Origin: an uncultured bacterium
GTDB lineage: Bacteria > Auribacterota > JACPWU01
Reading direction: 5' to 3'
Assembly (NCBI GenBank): GCA_964640155.1
Contig: CAZXEQ010000009.1
Location: 7,961 to 39,960, forward strand
DNA: 32,000 nt
In this document: piece by piece, positions 8,140 to 31,998 of the stretch
Layout: each line of letters starts with the position of its first letter
How positions within the stretch are numbered: position 1 is the stretch's first letter
Program-made: the position numbers and the translations under genes
Notes under the pieces: generated by a model
Told to the model about the DNA's origin: nothing
Database searches by the model: none
The model's input: only the letters and a program-made list of their open reading frames with translations

Positions 8140-8293
8140 GGCTTTTCCCTCCCGCTCTTCGTATCTATTATATCAAGGATTACACTTCAGATCGAGGAAA
8201 GGATAGTAATCAGTGATTTAGATTTTGTATATAAACGTATGCATATTTTATAGATGCGGGTGCCACTTAATTATCAAATTATCTCAAAAATTG

Positions 8294-15306: not shown

Positions 15307-15437
15307 ACTAAAGCCCTCTCCTGTTTCCCACGAAGCTGTAAGTATGCTTGGTTAATCATAAAAAATCAAATATTAAGAAAGAAAATTTACAGAGATAATC
15401 CCGTATACAAAAGTGTGTTCTTATTAGCTAAGAAACG

Positions 15438-15511
15438 GGTCCTGCCACTCGTCAGCCCCACCGTGCTCACTAAAAGTTGCGCGCGGCGGGGCTCCCCGTC
15501 GAGTGTCACCC
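15438..15511 (-). repeat. GC-rich structured element, copy A (74-nt core, minus orientation)
   Basis: It is the reverse complement of 20776-20849 with one mismatch (73/74). The core is about 69 percent GC by hand count, in an AT-rich context. It is flanked by CAAAAGTGTGT (15408-15418) and ACACACTTTTTTG (15525-15537), which are inverted. Confidence 0.85.
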
Positions 15512-15574
15512 GTATTTGTAAAGGACACACTTTTTTGCACAAGATCCAAGAAATTCTTCATTCAATTCCACAAG

Positions 15575-15735
15575 TGAAAATGGGGTGACCCGACTGGGGG
15601 TTCCCCATCGAGCGCCAGCAAGCGTCGCCTAAAACCTGAGAATCCTCATTAAATGCCCTGCCGACGCTGACCCCACAGGGGCTATAACTACATGTGCCGT
15701 CGATGGGGGTGAGGAGGGGCAGGACCCCATTTTCA
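15575..15735 (+). repeat. GC-rich structured element, copy B (longer family member, plus orientation)
   Basis: It starts GGGGTGACC and ends GGCAGGACCCC, like copy C. About 25 nt at each end are homologous to A/C (22/26 at the 3' end). It is closed by TGAAAATGGGGT / ACCCCATTTTCA (12 bp). Confidence 0.8.
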
Positions 15736-15871
15736 TGAATTTTGGCAATCTCTACCATTGATTCATCTTGCTTTATGGCTCATCTTAACGTATAGAGTAG
15801 GAGTTCAATGCTGTTTTGGGATATAATTTTGTCTCTTTTGAGTCTCTTAACCCAAATTTTATGAGTCAACT

Positions 15872-20696: not shown

Positions 20697-20775
20697 CATT
20701 ATAGCGTTTTTAATTCTACTTTACTATCAAAATGGGGATTGTGGATCCTGTTAAGAGTGTGTTTTTTATATATGT

Positions 20776-20849
20776 GGGTGACACTCGACGGGGAGCCCCG
20801 CCGCGCGCAACTTTTAGTGAGCACGGTCGGGCTGACGAGTGGCAGGACC
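20776..20849 (+). repeat. GC-rich structured element, copy C (74-nt core, plus orientation)
   Basis: GGGTGACACTCGACGGGGAGCCCCGCCGCGCGCAACTTTTAGTGAGCACGGTCGGGCTGACGAGTGGCAGGACC. It is flanked by perfect inverted AAGAGTGTGTTTTTT (20753-20767) and AAAAAAACACACTCTT (20861-20876). Confidence 0.85.
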
Positions 20850-21028
20850 TACTACTTTTCAAAAAAACACACTCTTATCTCCAGCACATCAACAATAAAA
20901 AATAAAAATCAGATATGTTTTTAGATTTCAAATCACTGTTTTTAATAGTCAATTTCAAAACATTATCTTACAATTTCTCTAACATCGTGTTACGCACTTC
21001 TCACAACGCATCACACAGAGCGAATTTT

Positions 21029-25359: not shown

Positions 25360-26850
25360 ATGTTGAATACCTCACAAAAAGTTCAAACCAGAATTTCTGA
25401 TGAAGCACTAGCTCAAGAAGCCTTGGATGAAGCTTTACGATTGGGTGCATCCTATGCCGATGTCCGGCTTATTGAACTTACTACTCGCAGTTTAGAAACA
25501 AAAAATGGTATTCCCACATCTCTCAACCATTCAGAATCGCAAGGACTCGGCATTCGTGTTATTTGTCAAGGGGCATGGGGTTTTGCAGCAACGCATGATT
25601 TGTCCAAAGAAAATGTGATTCGTACGGCATTCAAAGCGGTAAAAATTGCTAAAGCAAGTGCTTTACTCAAAAGAGAACCTCTTCATTTAGCTGAAGAACC
25701 TATCATTCAAACCGAATGGTCAACTCCTTTTAAAATAGATCCCTTTTTGATTTCTATTGATCAGCAATTAAATTTTTTGCTCAAACTGGATGAAACCCTT
25801 CGCGAAAATAAAAAAATCAGCGTTTCAGAAACTCAAATGCATTTTGAAAAAGAGAAAAAATTATTTATTTCCAGTGAAGGTTCTCGAATTCTACAAAATT
25901 TTATTACCAGCGGAGCAGGTTTCGTTGCTTTAGCTTTTAAAGATGGAGATTTACAAAAAAGATCTTATCCCAATTCATTTGGTGGACAATTCCAAAGAAA
26001 AGGATATGAACTGATTGAGGAATTAAAACTTTTGGAAAATGCGCCTCGCATTGCAGATGAAGCCGTCGCACTCTTAGATGCACCCAGCTGTCCAGTAGGT
26101 GCAAAAGATTTGATTTTGGATAGCTCTCAACTAGGACTTCAAATTCATGAATCGGTTGGCCATCCTATCGAATTGGATCGCGTTCTGGGGAGCGAGGCCA
26201 ATTACGCAGGAAAAAGTTTTTTGACTTTGGAAAAACTGGGCGTTCTTCAATATGGCTCTCCCATTGTCCATGTGGTCGCAGACGCACAAATCTCTCATGG
26301 ACCTGGTTTGGGTACTTTTGGATTTGATGATGAAGGTGTTCAAGCACAAACAACAGATATTATTCGCTCGGGACGCTTTGTAGGATATCTTTCTTCGCGC
26401 GAGACAGCCTCCTCTCTTGGGCAAAAAAGAAGCAATGGGACGATGCGAGCTGAAGGATGGAACAGAATTCCACTCATTCGTATGACCAATATCAGTTTAA
26501 TGCCTGGAGATAAAACCTTCGATGAAATGATTTCTGATACCAAAGATGGGATTTTTCTTGAGACCAATCGAAGCTGGAGCATTGATGATCAAAGGCTCAA
26601 TTTTCAATTCGGGACAGAATTAGGTTGGGAAATTAAACACGGAAAGAAAATCCGCATGGTCAAAAATCCTATTTATTGGGGAATGACTCCTGAATTTTGG
26701 AATGCATGTGATGCTATTTGTGACAAAAATCATTGGACACTTTGGGGCACTCCTAATTGTGGCAAAGGACAACCCTGTCAAACCATGGGAACAGGACATG
26801 GCGCAAGTCCAGCAAGATTTAGAAAGATTCAAGTTGGAGCTAGTCATTAA
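25360..26850 (+). CDS. tldD: Metalloprotease TldD
   Basis: 496 aa with the HESVGHPIELD metal-binding motif and the TldD-like C-terminal GxC..G motif region. Confidence 0.9.
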   Translation: MLNTSQKVQTRISDEALAQEALDEALRLGASYADVRLIELTTRSLETKNGIPTSLNHSESQGLGIRVICQGAWGFAATHDLSKENVIRTAFKAVKIAKASALLKREPLHLAEEPIIQTEWSTPFKIDPFLISIDQQLNFLLKLDETLRENKKISVSETQMHFEKEKKLFISSEGSRILQNFITSGAGFVALAFKDGDLQKRSYPNSFGGQFQRKGYELIEELKLLENAPRIADEAVALLDAPSCPVGAKDLILDSSQLGLQIHESVGHPIELDRVLGSEANYAGKSFLTLEKLGVLQYGSPIVHVVADAQISHGPGLGTFGFDDEGVQAQTTDIIRSGRFVGYLSSRETASSLGQKRSNGTMRAEGWNRIPLIRMTNISLMPGDKTFDEMISDTKDGIFLETNRSWSIDDQRLNFQFGTELGWEIKHGKKIRMVKNPIYWGMTPEFWNACDAICDKNHWTLWGTPNCGKGQPCQTMGTGHGASPARFRKIQVGASH

Positions 26851-26855
26851 AAAAA

Positions 26856-28193
26856 ATGAAAAATTTTAAAGAAAAAACTGAAGAGATTTTCGAAATTATT
26901 TTCAAAGCTAGTCAAGCGGATGAAACCGAAGCTTCTATTTCCTGGAACTCAGATTCTCTAACCCGCTTTGCCAATAATGAAATTCATCAAAATTTATCTG
27001 ATGAAAACTTTGAAATTTCCATTCGCTCAAATCTAGGAAAGAAAACAGCTCGTGTCACAACCAACAAGTCGGATAAAGAATCTCTGGAAACAATCGCATG
27101 TCTTTCTAATCATTTGGCTTCCTTAAATGCAGAAGATCCTGATCTTCTACCCATGCCCGAACCTCAAGAATATACACCGGTCGATCATGCACATGAACGT
27201 ACAGGACAGATTAAAGCTGAAACGCGCGCCCACGCTGTCAAGGTTCCCATTCAAATTGCACAATTGAAAGGTTTAAAAACAGCGGGCATTTTTTCAAATA
27301 GTCTTGAAAAGAACGCTCTTGGAAATTCAAAAGGATTACGTGCTTATTCAGAAGAAACCTATGCTGTTTTTTCTACAACGATGATGGCTGATTCTGGCTC
27401 GGGATGGGCTAAATTTGGACATCCCAATGCAGATAAAATTCCATTAGAAACACTTGCACTTCAAGCTTCTGAAAAAGCCATTTTAAGCAGAGACCCGATT
27501 GAAATAAACCCCGGCCCTTACACCGTTATTCTAGAGCCTTCTGCCGTTTTAGACTTAATGGAATTTATGTTAATGGATTTTGGAGGCTTGGCAGTTCATG
27601 AACAAAGAAGTTGCTTCACAGATTTTGTGGGCAAAAAAGTTTTTGGAGAAAATATTCATATTGAAGATGATGTTTATCATCCCCTGCAAAGTGGAGCAAA
27701 CTTTGATGGAGAAGGCATTCCAAAACAAAAAGTTCAACTCATTGAAAAAGGGATTCTTAAAAATTTAGTTTACAGTCGTGCCAGCGCTCAACAAGCAAAA
27801 ACAAAACCCACAGGACACGGATTTTCTATTCCTAACTCTTGGGGAGAAGCGCCCACGAATATTGTTTTTCATGGCGGGAATGCTTCTATTGAAGAGATGG
27901 TGAAGAGCACCGATCATGGACTTCTCATCACACGATTCTGGTATATTCGTGAAGTGGATTCGATGCAAAAGATTTTGACAGGAATGACCCGAGATGGCAC
28001 ATTTTTAATTGAAAATGGTAAGATTAAAAATGCAGTTAGAAATTTACGATTCAATGAAAGTTTATTTCACTTTCTAAACAATATTGAAATTTTAGGACCT
28101 GCCGTTCGAGCTGGAGGAGAAGAAGGGTTTGACATGGTAGTCCCTGCAGTAAAGGCAAAAGATTTTCATTTTACAAGCGTGACGAAGTATTAG
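26856..28193 (+). CDS. pmbA: TldE/PmbA family protein (TldD partner)
   Basis: 445 aa, in the PmbA_TldD family but lacking the HExxxH motif. It starts 5 nt after tldD. Confidence 0.85.
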   Translation: MKNFKEKTEEIFEIIFKASQADETEASISWNSDSLTRFANNEIHQNLSDENFEISIRSNLGKKTARVTTNKSDKESLETIACLSNHLASLNAEDPDLLPMPEPQEYTPVDHAHERTGQIKAETRAHAVKVPIQIAQLKGLKTAGIFSNSLEKNALGNSKGLRAYSEETYAVFSTTMMADSGSGWAKFGHPNADKIPLETLALQASEKAILSRDPIEINPGPYTVILEPSAVLDLMEFMLMDFGGLAVHEQRSCFTDFVGKKVFGENIHIEDDVYHPLQSGANFDGEGIPKQKVQLIEKGILKNLVYSRASAQQAKTKPTGHGFSIPNSWGEAPTNIVFHGGNASIEEMVKSTDHGLLITRFWYIREVDSMQKILTGMTRDGTFLIENGKIKNAVRNLRFNESLFHFLNNIEILGPAVRAGGEEGFDMVVPAVKAKDFHFTSVTKY

Positions 28194-29490: not shown

Positions 29491-31998
29491 TCACGGATTG
29501 GGATCGGAGGATAATGCAGGATCTGCATCAATCGTATTATTGGTAGAGTTAACTAAAGTTCCTCCTGGAGGATTGGCGCCCCCCGTCCAATAGTTATTTT
29601 CTGCATCGATGGTGAAACCTGCAGCAGCACTGGTATCACTCATATCAAATTCACCATTGCTATCTGAATCATTTCCCGTCAGAGAATTATTTCCTGGACT
29701 AGAAAGTCCTCCACCTCCAAAGTCAATCGTGTAAGTTGGAACACTGGCACTCAGTGAAAACAAAACACCATCCCCAACATTGTTTCGAATGATGTTTCCT
29801 TCTCCATATAAAATTAAAGCATCTCCAGCCCCTGTCCCTGCAGTGATGGTATAAGAAAACCCATCTTCTCCATTATTAGTTACAGTATTGGTGATGGCAC
29901 TGACGGTAACATCATCAGGTGCTGTTGTGGTCAAAACAATTCCCGAAAGAGAATTAGCACCTGTAACATTGTCGGTTAAAACGGTACTGACACTTCCACT
30001 GCTGCCAGAAACCAAGTTGTTAATCAGAAGCCCATAACCAGTATCGGCATCATTACCTGTATTCCCTGTCACCGTAATATTGATATTATCATTGAGAGAT
30101 GCATTACCGATATATATGTTATCCCCCGAGTTACTATTAGCAGTATTGGTACTTACAACTCCCACAATGGCACCAGAACCACTGCCAGAAACCGAGTTGC
30201 TGATCAAAAGGCCAAAACCACCCGTACTACCATTTGCTATGTTTCCAGTCACCGTGACATTGATATCATCATTCAAAGATGTATTAACCATAAAGATATT
30301 ATTATCTGCGTTACCCGTAGCCGTATTGGTACTTGTAAAAACCTCAATAGCTCCAGAACCACTCCCCAGAACTGTGTTGCCCATCCCAATCCCCATATAA
30401 CTACCACTATTATTCGCTATATTCCCTGTCACGGTGACATTGATATCATCATTGAGAGATGTATTTATGATAGATATATTCATATTTGCGTTTCCAATAG
30501 CAGTATTAGTACTTATAAAATTTGAAATTGACCCTGCACCACTTCCAGAAACTGTGTTCGTAATCTCAATCCCCAAATTAGACAGACTATTGCTTGCCGT
30601 ATTTCCAGTCACGGTGACATTGATATCACCATTAAGAGATCGATTACGGATAGATAGATTAGTGCCCCCATTATTGCTAGCCCTATTATCACTCATAACT
30701 CCCACAATTGATCCAGAACCACTCCCTGAGACTGTATTAGTGATGGAAAGTCCGAAACCACCTGCATTATTATTATTTAGAAGGTTCCCTGTAGCAGTGA
30801 TAGTGATATTGTCATTAAGCGAATTAAGAAAAACAAAGAAATTACTCGTCCCATTGAGTTCCGATATATTATTACTAATATCAGCATTAATTGCGCCCGA
30901 ACTTGATCCTGAAACTGCCCCTGACACATAAGAACCAAAGCTTGTAGTACTAGAACTCGTTTTATTTCCGGTCACTGTCACATTGAGATCCGCATTCAGA
31001 GAGGTTAAAGTCATAGAAAAGTTACTGGTTACATTGTTACTAAAATTATTCCTATTGATGAGAGCATTCACTTCTCCAGAACCAGTTCCACCCACAACTG
31101 CAGAAATAGCAGCACCATCTGCTAACCCAGTGAGGCCTCTATTGTTATCCATGGTAAGTGTAATATCCGCATCTTGAGAAGTGAGCGTCACAGATAAATT
31201 AGTTAAAGTATTACTTTCCATACGATTGTCACTGATAGTAGCATTGATTGCTCCTATGGTAGTTGCAGCAACTTCGCTATTGATACGAATCCCATATCCT
31301 CCTGAAGTATGGGACTGGTTATCTGTCACATTTAATTCAATATTTCCTCCTGTCGTATCAACATCCAACACCACATTTGAAGAAGTATTGGATTCAAGAA
31401 CATTATCAATAACATTTACAGTAGTGGGTGCACGCGAACCAGAGTTAACCCATATACCACGATTAGCATTGTTTGAAACTGTGTTTCCACGGATGGTTGC
31501 CGTAAAGGAATCATAATCATTTGTACTAATACTAATTCCATCAAATGCATTTCCTGTAGCGGTGTTATCTAAAATAGTTGTGTTAAATGAAGAACTCAGT
31601 GTCCCTAAACTAATAATTCCTATCCCTTCAGCTACATCATTCTGGCTGATGGTATTATCGGAAATTGTTGAAGTAAAATCTGTAACACTATCTGCAGCTA
31701 AAAAAACTCCTATAGAATTAGCATGAATATAATTCTCACAACTGATTTCTAAATTGGTTTTGTTCTCAGCGTAAATACCTATGCGCTTGACGTTAAAAAG
31801 TTGTCCAGCTACAGAACGAAATTGATTAGCACCCCCCATATCCGTATTAATCACTTCCATACCCCAGATCTTGGTATTATCTGCCATGGTAATAGAGGGA
31901 CCATTACTTCTTCCATCTACAATAGGCCTAATCCCACTCTCTATACCATAGTTCACACATCCACTTCCCCATAGAATCACATTCTCTTTGAGGGTCAC
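29491..31998 (-). CDS. Large right-handed beta-helix (PbH1-type) repeat protein, C-terminal 835 aa (N-terminus outside the window)
   Basis: The ORF stays open to the window edge. It has repeated N.T.TGN / N(T/S)VSGSGSGAI units, is rich in Asn/Thr/Ser/Gly, and has a terminal ENNYWTG motif common at the end of PbH1 arrays. Confidence 0.8.
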   Translation of the reverse strand: MTLKENVILWGSGCVNYGIESGIRPIVDGRSNGPSITMADNTKIWGMEVINTDMGGANQFRSVAGQLFNVKRIGIYAENKTNLEISCENYIHANSIGVFLAADSVTDFTSTISDNTISQNDVAEGIGIISLGTLSSSFNTTILDNTATGNAFDGISISTNDYDSFTATIRGNTVSNNANRGIWVNSGSRAPTTVNVIDNVLESNTSSNVVLDVDTTGGNIELNVTDNQSHTSGGYGIRINSEVAATTIGAINATISDNRMESNTLTNLSVTLTSQDADITLTMDNNRGLTGLADGAAISAVVGGTGSGEVNALINRNNFSNNVTSNFSMTLTSLNADLNVTVTGNKTSSSTTSFGSYVSGAVSGSSSGAINADISNNISELNGTSNFFVFLNSLNDNITITATGNLLNNNNAGGFGLSITNTVSGSGSGSIVGVMSDNRASNNGGTNLSIRNRSLNGDINVTVTGNTASNSLSNLGIEITNTVSGSGAGSISNFISTNTAIGNANMNISIINTSLNDDINVTVTGNIANNSGSYMGIGMGNTVLGSGSGAIEVFTSTNTATGNADNNIFMVNTSLNDDINVTVTGNIANGSTGGFGLLISNSVSGSGSGAIVGVVSTNTANSNSGDNIYIGNASLNDNINITVTGNTGNDADTGYGLLINNLVSGSSGSVSTVLTDNVTGANSLSGIVLTTTAPDDVTVSAITNTVTNNGEDGFSYTITAGTGAGDALILYGEGNIIRNNVGDGVLFSLSASVPTYTIDFGGGGLSSPGNNSLTGNDSDSNGEFDMSDTSAAAGFTIDAENNYWTGGANPPGGTLVNSTNNTIDADPALSSDPNP
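30060..31340 (-). repeat. In-frame tandem repeats of about 180 bp (60 aa) inside the beta-helix gene, about 7 units
   Basis: The motif C(C/A)(T/G)GTCAC(C/G)GTGACATTGATATCA.. recurs near 30063, 30245, 30425 and 30605. Degenerate copies occur near 30785, 30968, 31150 and 31325. Confidence 0.8.

Follow-up and report, generated by a model that had tools for sequence, protein, structure and literature searches.

Introduction

Palindromic repeats that colonise the coding sequence of housekeeping genes have, to our knowledge, been treated as a curiosity of Rickettsia, their mobility unexplained for 25 years. These Rickettsia palindromic elements (RPEs) have an AT-rich composition and have been described from Rickettsia alone. 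The GC clusters of yeast and other mitochondria are mobile GC-rich palindromes in AT-rich genomes that occasionally lie in frame in a gene, and we know of no mobilising enzyme for them. RPEs are hairpin repeats, roughly half of which sit in frame in unrelated housekeeping genes and are translated (Ogata et al. 2000; summarised in PMC10969869). REPs (20–40 nt) are species-specific extragenic repeats marked by a GTAG or CGTC tag (PMC3733652).

Here we analyse a 32,000-nt stretch of DNA (the window) that holds three copies, A, B and C, and one remnant of a GC-rich hairpin family. The copies are probably those of a widespread, non-autonomous, GC-rich palindromic insertion element that is RPE-like in behaviour.

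Results

Three related copies and a remnant in a housekeeping region

The window has a G+C content of about 38%, and its gene content is housekeeping and typical of a PVC-group bacterium. Its ORFs comprise futalosine-pathway menaquinone genes, UbiD, an acyl-ACP desaturase, a Pkn-type kinase with HEAT repeats, an FHA-GAF-SpoIIE phosphatase, and glycogen debranching enzyme, ankyrin, TldD/PmbA and ThiC proteins; nothing that encodes a transposase, an integrase or a reverse transcriptase was found within the window. Of the relatives on record, the Candidatus Auribacterota MAG GCA_041906865.1 is the nearest, with 96–97% amino-acid identity. A large beta-helix ORF on the minus strand (29491–31998) contains four tandem 180-nt repeats, 68–72% identical, at 30059–30774. 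In a 78%-identical relative, a bAvd / 23S-rRNA-IVS-protein gene lies between the TldD and PmbA genes (L106:3828–4184), and the TldD/PmbA region of the window (25360–28193) is without it.

A covariance model (R1), built from homologs in other organisms, scores all three copies (Table 1) with E-values of 1e-12 to 5e-15, so that their kinship is not a matter of chance. A filters-off search of the window with the model returned no match beyond A, B and C. A and C are 85% identical across 124 nt, AT-rich arms included, and have fold z-scores of −4.6 to −5.1. The proposal of a first-pass annotation that B is a third member of the A/C family is confirmed by the model scores, and the 3' end of B does resemble those of A and C, with an 85% match to A over 27 nt. 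A (minus) and B (plus) stand head to head with a spacing of 71 nt, in agreement with the divergent arrangement about 70 nt apart described before. The motifs and complementary stretches quoted for B were all found in place (GGGGTGACC starts at 15582). The centre of B is indeed longer, but its size had been overestimated at about 90 nt extra; the core is 145 nt as against 75 nt in A and C, a difference of 70 nt.

Table 1. Positions of the element copies in the window and of the structural parts of copy B
Feature	Position	Strand	Description	Score or basis
Copy B core	15583..15727	+	GGGUGAC to GGCAGGACCC; long-apical-domain ('CAGCA') subfamily	CM R1 72.6 bits, E 5e-15
Copy A core	15437..15511	-	Whole unit with AT-rich arms ~15403-15545	CM 70.8 bits
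Copy C core	20776..20850	+	Whole unit with AT-rich arms ~20743-20882	CM 62.6 bits
Fourth-copy remnant GGGTGCCACT	8258..8267	+	Full copy at the orthologous site L079:1753-1827	
B basal stem, 5' strand	15575..15586	+	P1 GGGU 15583-86 extended by UGAAAAUG; partner 15724-15735	Folds
B loop GA (15587-88) and P2 5' strand	15587..15595	+	CCC 15589-91, tandem G.A 15592-93, CU 15594-95	
B G-rich bulge	15596..15601	+	GGGGG plus U, opposite U15710-G15711	
B P3 5' strand	15602..15611	+	U.G pair plus CCCCAUCGA; partner 15700-15709	
B junction strand CGCCAGCA	15613..15620	+	Faces GA 15669-70 and UGCCG 15695-99; C.C and G.A mismatches	
B P4	15621..15668	+	AGCGUCG 15621-27 / CGACGCU 15662-68; encloses apical region including hairpin UGAG-AAUC-CUCA	
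B-specific 24-nt insertion	15671..15694	+	Hairpin CCCC-ACA-GGGG 15671-81; splits the junction strand into GA and UGCCG	
B basal stem, 3' strand	15724..15757	+	ACCC plus CAUUUUCA, then long-right-arm remnant ATTTTCATGAATTTTGGCAATCTCTACC	

The family shares one irregular rod

The structure was derived from alignments, RNAalifold, covariance model R1 and pair counts. The family fold is a single irregular rod supported by covariation. At its base, P1 (GGGU/ACCC) consists of GC, GC, GC and UA pairs that are invariant in 44 sequences, and it is nearly always lengthened by at least one C–G or G–C pair, plus an arm of 0–28 bp. Above P1, an asymmetric loop sets GA against GCAGG. P2 (CNC/GN'G) follows, with a middle pair, 8/206, that covaries (GC 23, CG 9, AU 7, UA 1), and its tandem G·A is replaced by Watson–Crick UC/GA in seven sequences (A, C, Auribacterota copies and L010). 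Beyond the tandem G·A comes CU/AG or GUC/GAC, pair 12/201 being CG in 25 cases and GC in 17. A G-rich bulge of four to five G plus one nucleotide, whose G-run is invariant in alignments A1 and A2, then faces a single invariant U (plus G). P3 is composed of a C-run and four to six variable pairs, such as 27/191 (UA 14, AU 12, CG 9, GC 6), and shows both-sided changes at 7 of 10 pairs. The covariation score reaches 0.336, compared with 0.087 for shuffled alignments, none of the 500 scoring as high, and no more than 0.064 when the partners were slid. The apical domain is free in sequence and in length, from 10 to ~90 nt. Homologs therefore bear out the earlier description of strongly conserved ends around a variable, modular interior, and the structure goes far beyond a simple REP hairpin in complexity, as had also been supposed. 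In repeats of the REP or MITE type it is unusual for unpaired nucleotides to stay conserved from phylum to phylum, a point against an insertion element.

Among well-aligned pairs, G·U outnumbers A·C by 17 to 5. This excess, together with the tandem G·A, identifies the GGGUGAC...GGACCC strand as the folded one; the same evidence fits RNA and single-stranded DNA alike.

Copy B is a member whose apical domain is enlarged by P4 and an extra hairpin. Its P2 3' strand occupies 15712–15718 and the facing GCAGG loop 15719–23. Members of its subfamily occur in a Chlamydiae MAG (L010, L045, L096), in a Pseudomonadota MAG and at L099. In a block alignment with L010, L045, L096, L015, L049 and others, the junction CGCCAGCA/GAUGCCG was present in nine relatives, L045 having UGCCAGCA/GAUGCCA, in which a C–G junction pair becomes U–A. 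P4 keeps its position, its sequence being unrelated from copy to copy (GGCGUCG/CGACGCC, GUCCCGC/GCGGGAC, GGCC/GGCC, GC-GAA-GC), and the apical sequence of B is homologous to that of L010. The 24-nt insertion is absent from all other members of the subfamily in this alignment. The right arm of B, to ~15757, matches the 28-bp perfect arm of the Chlamydiae MAG copy L010 at ~22 of 28 positions, and its left arm is decayed.

Competing helices are a quirk of copy B

The first-pass annotation had viewed B as a switch-like modular RNA on the strength of mutually exclusive pairings. TGGGG (15595–99) and CCCCA (15603–07) are complementary as claimed, and CCCCATCGA (15603–11) is the perfect 9-bp complement of TCGATGGGG (15700–08), a helix that is the covariation-supported P3 of the family. 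CGACG (15662–66) is likewise complementary to CGTCG (15698–702), but this pairing is not the conserved one, since homology pairs CGACG with CGUCG at 15623–27 in P4. CCTGCC (15657–62) can pair with GGCAGG (15718–23), but the complementarity is not conserved either, the closest relative, L010, having CUUUCC. RNAfold on B as RNA gave probabilities of 0.9 for the local hairpin, 0.93 for CCUGCC/GGCAGG and 0.01 for the 9-bp helix. With DNA parameters the ranking was reversed, the 9-bp helix rising to 0.85, and the family fold was the optimum. The RNA fold energy was −66.6 kcal/mol with the local hairpin and CCUGCC/GGCAGG, compared with −63.4 when P1, P3 and P4 were enforced. This preference of the RNA energy model holds for B only. 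Across 42 family members the G-run/C-run local hairpin has a mean predicted probability of 0.01 (RNA) or 0.03 (DNA), being improbable because the linker is usually 0–2 nt, so that outside B the conserved G-run does not depend on such a hairpin, and P3 exceeds a probability of 0.5 in 33 of the 42 with RNA and in 36 with DNA parameters. Competing pairings thus exist for B as RNA but not for the family, to which the alternatives are foreign; the helix competition is a quirk of copy B, and no switch is supported.

The wider idea of a structured non-coding RNA, either a 5'-UTR cis-regulatory element or a small RNA gene, modular and possibly a conformational switch, is improbable. Strong covariation, conserved unpaired nucleotides, the excess of G·U over A·C and two B RNA conformers within 3.2 kcal/mol would all suit such an RNA, as would the location of A, B and C, each 65–145 nt upstream of a same-strand gene (UbiD, acyl-ACP desaturase and GDE). 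This uniform placement of the three window copies, each ahead of the next gene and in its direction, is also a counter-point to an insertion element. However, the genes downstream have no function in common, conservation does not extend to the alternative helices, the spacer between A and B contains no promoter-like or terminator-like consensus, and covariation in a DNA palindrome could also arise by template switching. A hammerhead was rejected by a hand check of the core CUGANGA ... GAAA, with no GAAA and no stem III.

The element occurs in at least six phyla

One genome per species was scanned with the shared 3' motif GGGNTGANGAGNGGCAGGACC, which retrieved 103 loci. About 60 of these are chance matches in high-GC genomes; 42, all in low-GC MAGs, have GGGUGAC, the G-run and the C-run upstream at the proper distance. 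A reciprocal scan of metagenomes with the 5' motif added at least 21 copies, most of which retain GGCAGGACCC, with variants including GACAGGACCC and GGCAGGAGCC. Each end of the element is therefore conserved, as it is seen in copies retrieved via the opposite end. The family amounts to at least ~60 further copies in MAGs and metagenomes and extends over at least six bacterial phyla. According to the labels of the source MAGs, the hosts are Auribacterota, Chlamydiae, Omnitrophota and Eisenbacteria, the Patescibacteria (Levyi-, Gottesman- and Saccharibacteria, Parcubacteria and others), and, among Proteobacteria, a 'Deltaproteobacteria' MAG and several Gammaproteobacteria and Pseudomonadota MAGs. 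One Gammaproteobacteria/Pseudomonadota MAG has seven loci, and the maximum per MAG is seven exact-motif copies.

Two unusual derivatives, both in frame within an ORF, are a divergent copy recognisable only by its GGGTGAC and GGCAGGACCC ends (L184:4242–4338) and a 36-nt form that has lost everything between its two G-runs (L164:12086–12121). Chance 3'-motif matches at L008, L020, L027, L041 and L071 come from the lytic-transglycosylase coding motif WVDERQDP in unrelated genomes; WVDERQDP is also the peptide encoded by the 3' end of the element in one frame.

Rfam 15, with its self-cleaving ribozymes, contains no matching family: the window had no gathering-score match, the A/B region gave only noise at E up to 10, and 15 further loci yielded tRNAs and an SRP RNA only, with no family for the element. 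ARAGORN found nothing in the window. In the literature, the motif string retrieved primers only, and keyword searches gave no description of this family. A phage origin was dismissed after a scan of viral contigs returned 0 copies, and likenesses to Tn3-type inverted repeats, KOPS and dif proved superficial only. The GC-rich hairpin family is previously uncatalogued and has a cross-phylum core.

It is hard to credit that these are ordinary species-specific REP-type extragenic palindromes, terminators or chance GC-rich hairpins. They are GC-rich, hairpin-forming, multi-copy and, in the window, intergenic, as such sequences would be, but the same core in at least six phyla contradicts this explanation, as do copies within genes, the lack of a U/T tract, the elaborate asymmetric structure with its conserved loops, and the E-values from the covariance model.

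Most listed copies lie in open frames of conserved genes

Among the matches listed, 38 of 64 copies (~60%) lie within long ORFs of conserved proteins. The host proteins include HemH (ferrochelatase), a ThiL-like protein, QueA, GatA, DUF2298, a carbamoyltransferase, MutY, RadA and glycosyltransferases, and two are hit twice: topoisomerase I (TopA, at different sites) and RNase HII. Of these 38 listed genic copies, 18 share the strand of the gene and 20 lie on the opposite one. The reading frame is open in all genic copies, and peptides derived from the element recur (GDATGGPP..GVRSGRTR, VTRVG..DERQDP and GPAxPHP..PPVASP). Two apparent frame breaks are explained by a scaffold gap (L093) and by an unrelated frameshift 150 nt away (L034). 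If removal took place at the RNA level, most genic copies would be expected out of frame, which they are not; this indicates that the element is read through, as in RPEs. The genic copies are thus predicted to be translated in frame, and the element would be a source of 25–30-residue Gly/Pro/Ala/Arg-rich insertions in annotated proteins of Patescibacteria and Chlamydiae-like bacteria.

Other explanations of the genic copies were examined. A SECIS was excluded, as the conserved GGG-UGA-C never falls in the frame used. An intron or translational bypass was also rejected, given that the genic copies are all open-frame and that copies squeezed between ORFs separate complete genes (tgt and yajC, purA and purB, nuoE and nuoF). 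A role inside the host mRNA is argued against by the random orientation. The fixed position and orientation upstream of functionally related genes that mark a riboswitch were not found either, the contexts being unrelated and including ORF interiors. The 64 copies listed show no orientation preference with respect to genes, ~60% of them are within ORFs on either strand, and copies are gained and lost between genomes 96–97% identical; together these features make an RNA gene or riboswitch unlikely, and the switch-like modular RNA was not upheld. A GC-rich intergenic island can show strong covariation and conserved loops without being a riboswitch, a practical warning when such regions are searched for non-coding RNAs.

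Among the 64 copies listed (L001–L215 plus the window; a small, non-independent sample), the plus (G-rich) strand of the element coincides with the locally C-rich DNA strand 38 times and with the G-rich one 17 times. This skew may reflect a bias relative to replication.

Turnover of copies and conservation in place

Near-identical copies are present at unrelated sites inside one MAG (L049, L052, L078, L091; L014, L087). Copy A is absent from the orthologous UbiD–desaturase spacer of a relative 96–97% identical (L104). Copy C is absent from the spacer between the debranching enzyme and the FHA phosphatase in L105 (96% amino-acid identity) and in L106 (78%). The covariance model detected no copy in 29 kb of orthologous DNA of the relatives. 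The near-identical Auribacterota MAG that carries the fourth copy in full has a 75-nt element there, while in the window the segment between two GCCACT 6-bp direct repeats is missing at the remnant; the fourth copy was deleted between the repeats. A clean filled/empty site with boundaries or a target-site duplication was not found: the A, B and C spacers of the relatives are replaced or diverged, not merely shorter, the GatA linker is too variable as an empty site for the boundaries to be read, and seven recent copies in one MAG, inspected by eye, show no consistent direct repeat.

At the B and C sites the relatives' spacers contain other palindromes. At the B-orthologous site, L104:4400–4470 has a B-like 5' half (GGGTTC..CCGACTG..GAGCGCCAG) without the 3' half, joined to an unrelated 18-bp perfect hairpin, CCCGCTACGAGGTAATCC/GGATTACCTCGTAGCGGG. 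At the C site, L105:7760–8000 and L106:7800–8000 have an AT-rich 13-bp inverted repeat, GGATTGTGAATAG/CTATTCACAATCC, around ~47 nt, and the window retains both arms of this repeat outside C.

A linker of GatA (LNAYLxVF to GIPCAIKDN) in a Parcubacteria clade occurs in five forms. It carries the element in minus orientation in P0131–P0134, L137 and L199 and in plus orientation in P0135, P0146, P0150 and L124; the remaining forms are frame-hybrids, a different palindromic insert and no insert. The different insert (L227:301–1743; also P0141, P0143, P0145, P0155 and P0160) is translated as SPAxxDR..AGQV and has the hairpins GTCCTGC-TTT-GCAGGAC and CCCCGCACC..GGTGCGGGG. The GatA linker is a hot spot for several hairpin elements. 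One site in a GT-like protein also has both orientations (L200 versus L210 and L114). At the GatA and GT-like sites alike, the two orientations belong to one subfamily and come from related species.

At these orthologous sites (GatA, GT-like) the element is 85–99% identical, compared with 57–82% for 150 nt of flanking coding DNA, and this applies to flipped copies too. Moreover, P2 changes from CCC/GGG to CUC/GAG between L089 and L056, a compensatory change that costs two amino-acid changes. The identity of flipped copies and this costly compensation imply that what is conserved is the nucleotide sequence or the fold and not the peptide. Selfish DNA that is inert would not be expected to stay at 85–99% identity in place, which hints at a local function or continual homogenisation.

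Such conservation above that of the host gene is what a domesticated motif acting at the DNA level, or independently of orientation, would display. Here a conserved host protein would bind the hairpin or cruciform, in a process such as replication, recombination or nucleoid organisation, and selection would keep the motif in place, with mobility secondary. The compensation despite two amino-acid changes, a terminal module conserved across phyla and the strand skew of 38 versus 17 point the same way, although the skew comes from a small, non-independent sample. We nevertheless regard a domesticated motif as unlikely: we know of no partner protein, close relatives can do without individual copies, copies decay by deletion, and the similarity in place could come from re-invasion or gene conversion.

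The arms offer a further view of how copies change. In the minus-orientation GatA copies the left arm, TTCCGTAAAG, encodes FRK in place of the usual acidic residues and is the reverse complement of the native downstream LYGI codons. This sequence comparison suggests that arms may be extended by copying of the flanking DNA. Quasi-palindromes are known to mutate by template switching.

Discussion

The surprising features of this family are its cross-phylum core, its conservation above the host gene and its flipping in place. We favour an RPE-like insertion element whose mobility is inferred from the distribution of its copies. The unit folds on one strand as one long irregular hairpin, with the GGGUGAC and GGCAGGACCC ends paired as a basal stem. 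Copies occupy short spacers between genes as well as housekeeping genes themselves, and they are gained, lost, truncated and apparently flipped in place. The conserved terminal module may be the site recognised by an activity, supplied in trans, through which the element is copied or maintained, and the recognised form would most likely be folded single-stranded DNA. The flank-ward extension of the stem and part of the 'compensatory' change could stem from quasi-palindrome template switching during replication, without selection on an RNA. No mobilising enzyme is encoded in or beside any copy examined, all-against-all clustering of 305 neighbouring ORFs (40 loci) found no recurrent family except host genes, and an autonomous version with an ORF in the apical domain does not occur among the ~60 copies in the matches listed.

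A bolder proposal, which we put forward tentatively, is that the family is a new class of hairpin element common to Patescibacteria, PVC phyla and Proteobacteria, and that purifying selection acts on its nucleotides even within essential genes. At orthologous sites it surpasses GatA itself in conservation, it flips in place, and it has protein-linker hot spots in common with other palindromic elements. If the proposal holds, it would imply either a universal single-strand-based mechanism of copying or homing that needs no enzyme of the element's own, or that the folded DNA serves the host; an element better conserved than an essential host gene raises the possibility of such a function. Either way, one conserved core colonises housekeeping coding sequence across many phyla of small-genome, AT-rich, mostly uncultured bacteria, and its copies provide a large comparative data set for tracing the mobilising or binding machinery by phylogenetic profiling.

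Several known systems resemble the element in part. Like REP/BIME/REPIN repeats (RAYT, Y1 HUH) and IS200/IS605-derived elements, it is a short imperfect palindrome with one functional strand, has no target-site duplication and, as proposed above, may be recognised in trans as folded single-stranded DNA. It differs from REP/RAYT systems in that its units are 60–180 nt long, often within genes and cross-phylum. They carry neither a tag nor a conserved tetranucleotide in the flank, and no RAYT gene was seen beside copies at 40 loci. It is not a classical MITE (DDE) by its ends, which share GGGT/ACCC only (left GGGTGAC versus GGGTCCTGCC, the reverse complement of the right end). With attC sites it shares a hairpin recognised by its structure on one strand, in which the base is conserved, some nucleotides are extrahelical or unpaired and the terminal structure varies (a few to >80 nt); the RYYYAAC/GTTRRRY core sites are absent from its conserved ends, and its copies are dispersed or within genes with no cassette arrays. 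Mitochondrial GC clusters are organellar, shorter and unrelated in sequence.

The closest likeness is to RPEs. Both are hairpin-forming repeats of ~100–150 bp, multi-copy, without coding capacity of their own and with no known transposase, and in both many copies lie in unrelated genes with the frame kept open (here 38 of the 64 copies listed). In contrast to RPEs, the present family is GC-rich although its host genomes are AT-rich, and its hosts range across Patescibacteria, PVC phyla, Eisenbacteria and Proteobacteria. Its terminal module is asymmetric and conserved, and one and the same site is found occupied in both orientations. The relation to RPEs is thus best taken as a working analogy and not as family membership, the element being set apart by its composition and host range.
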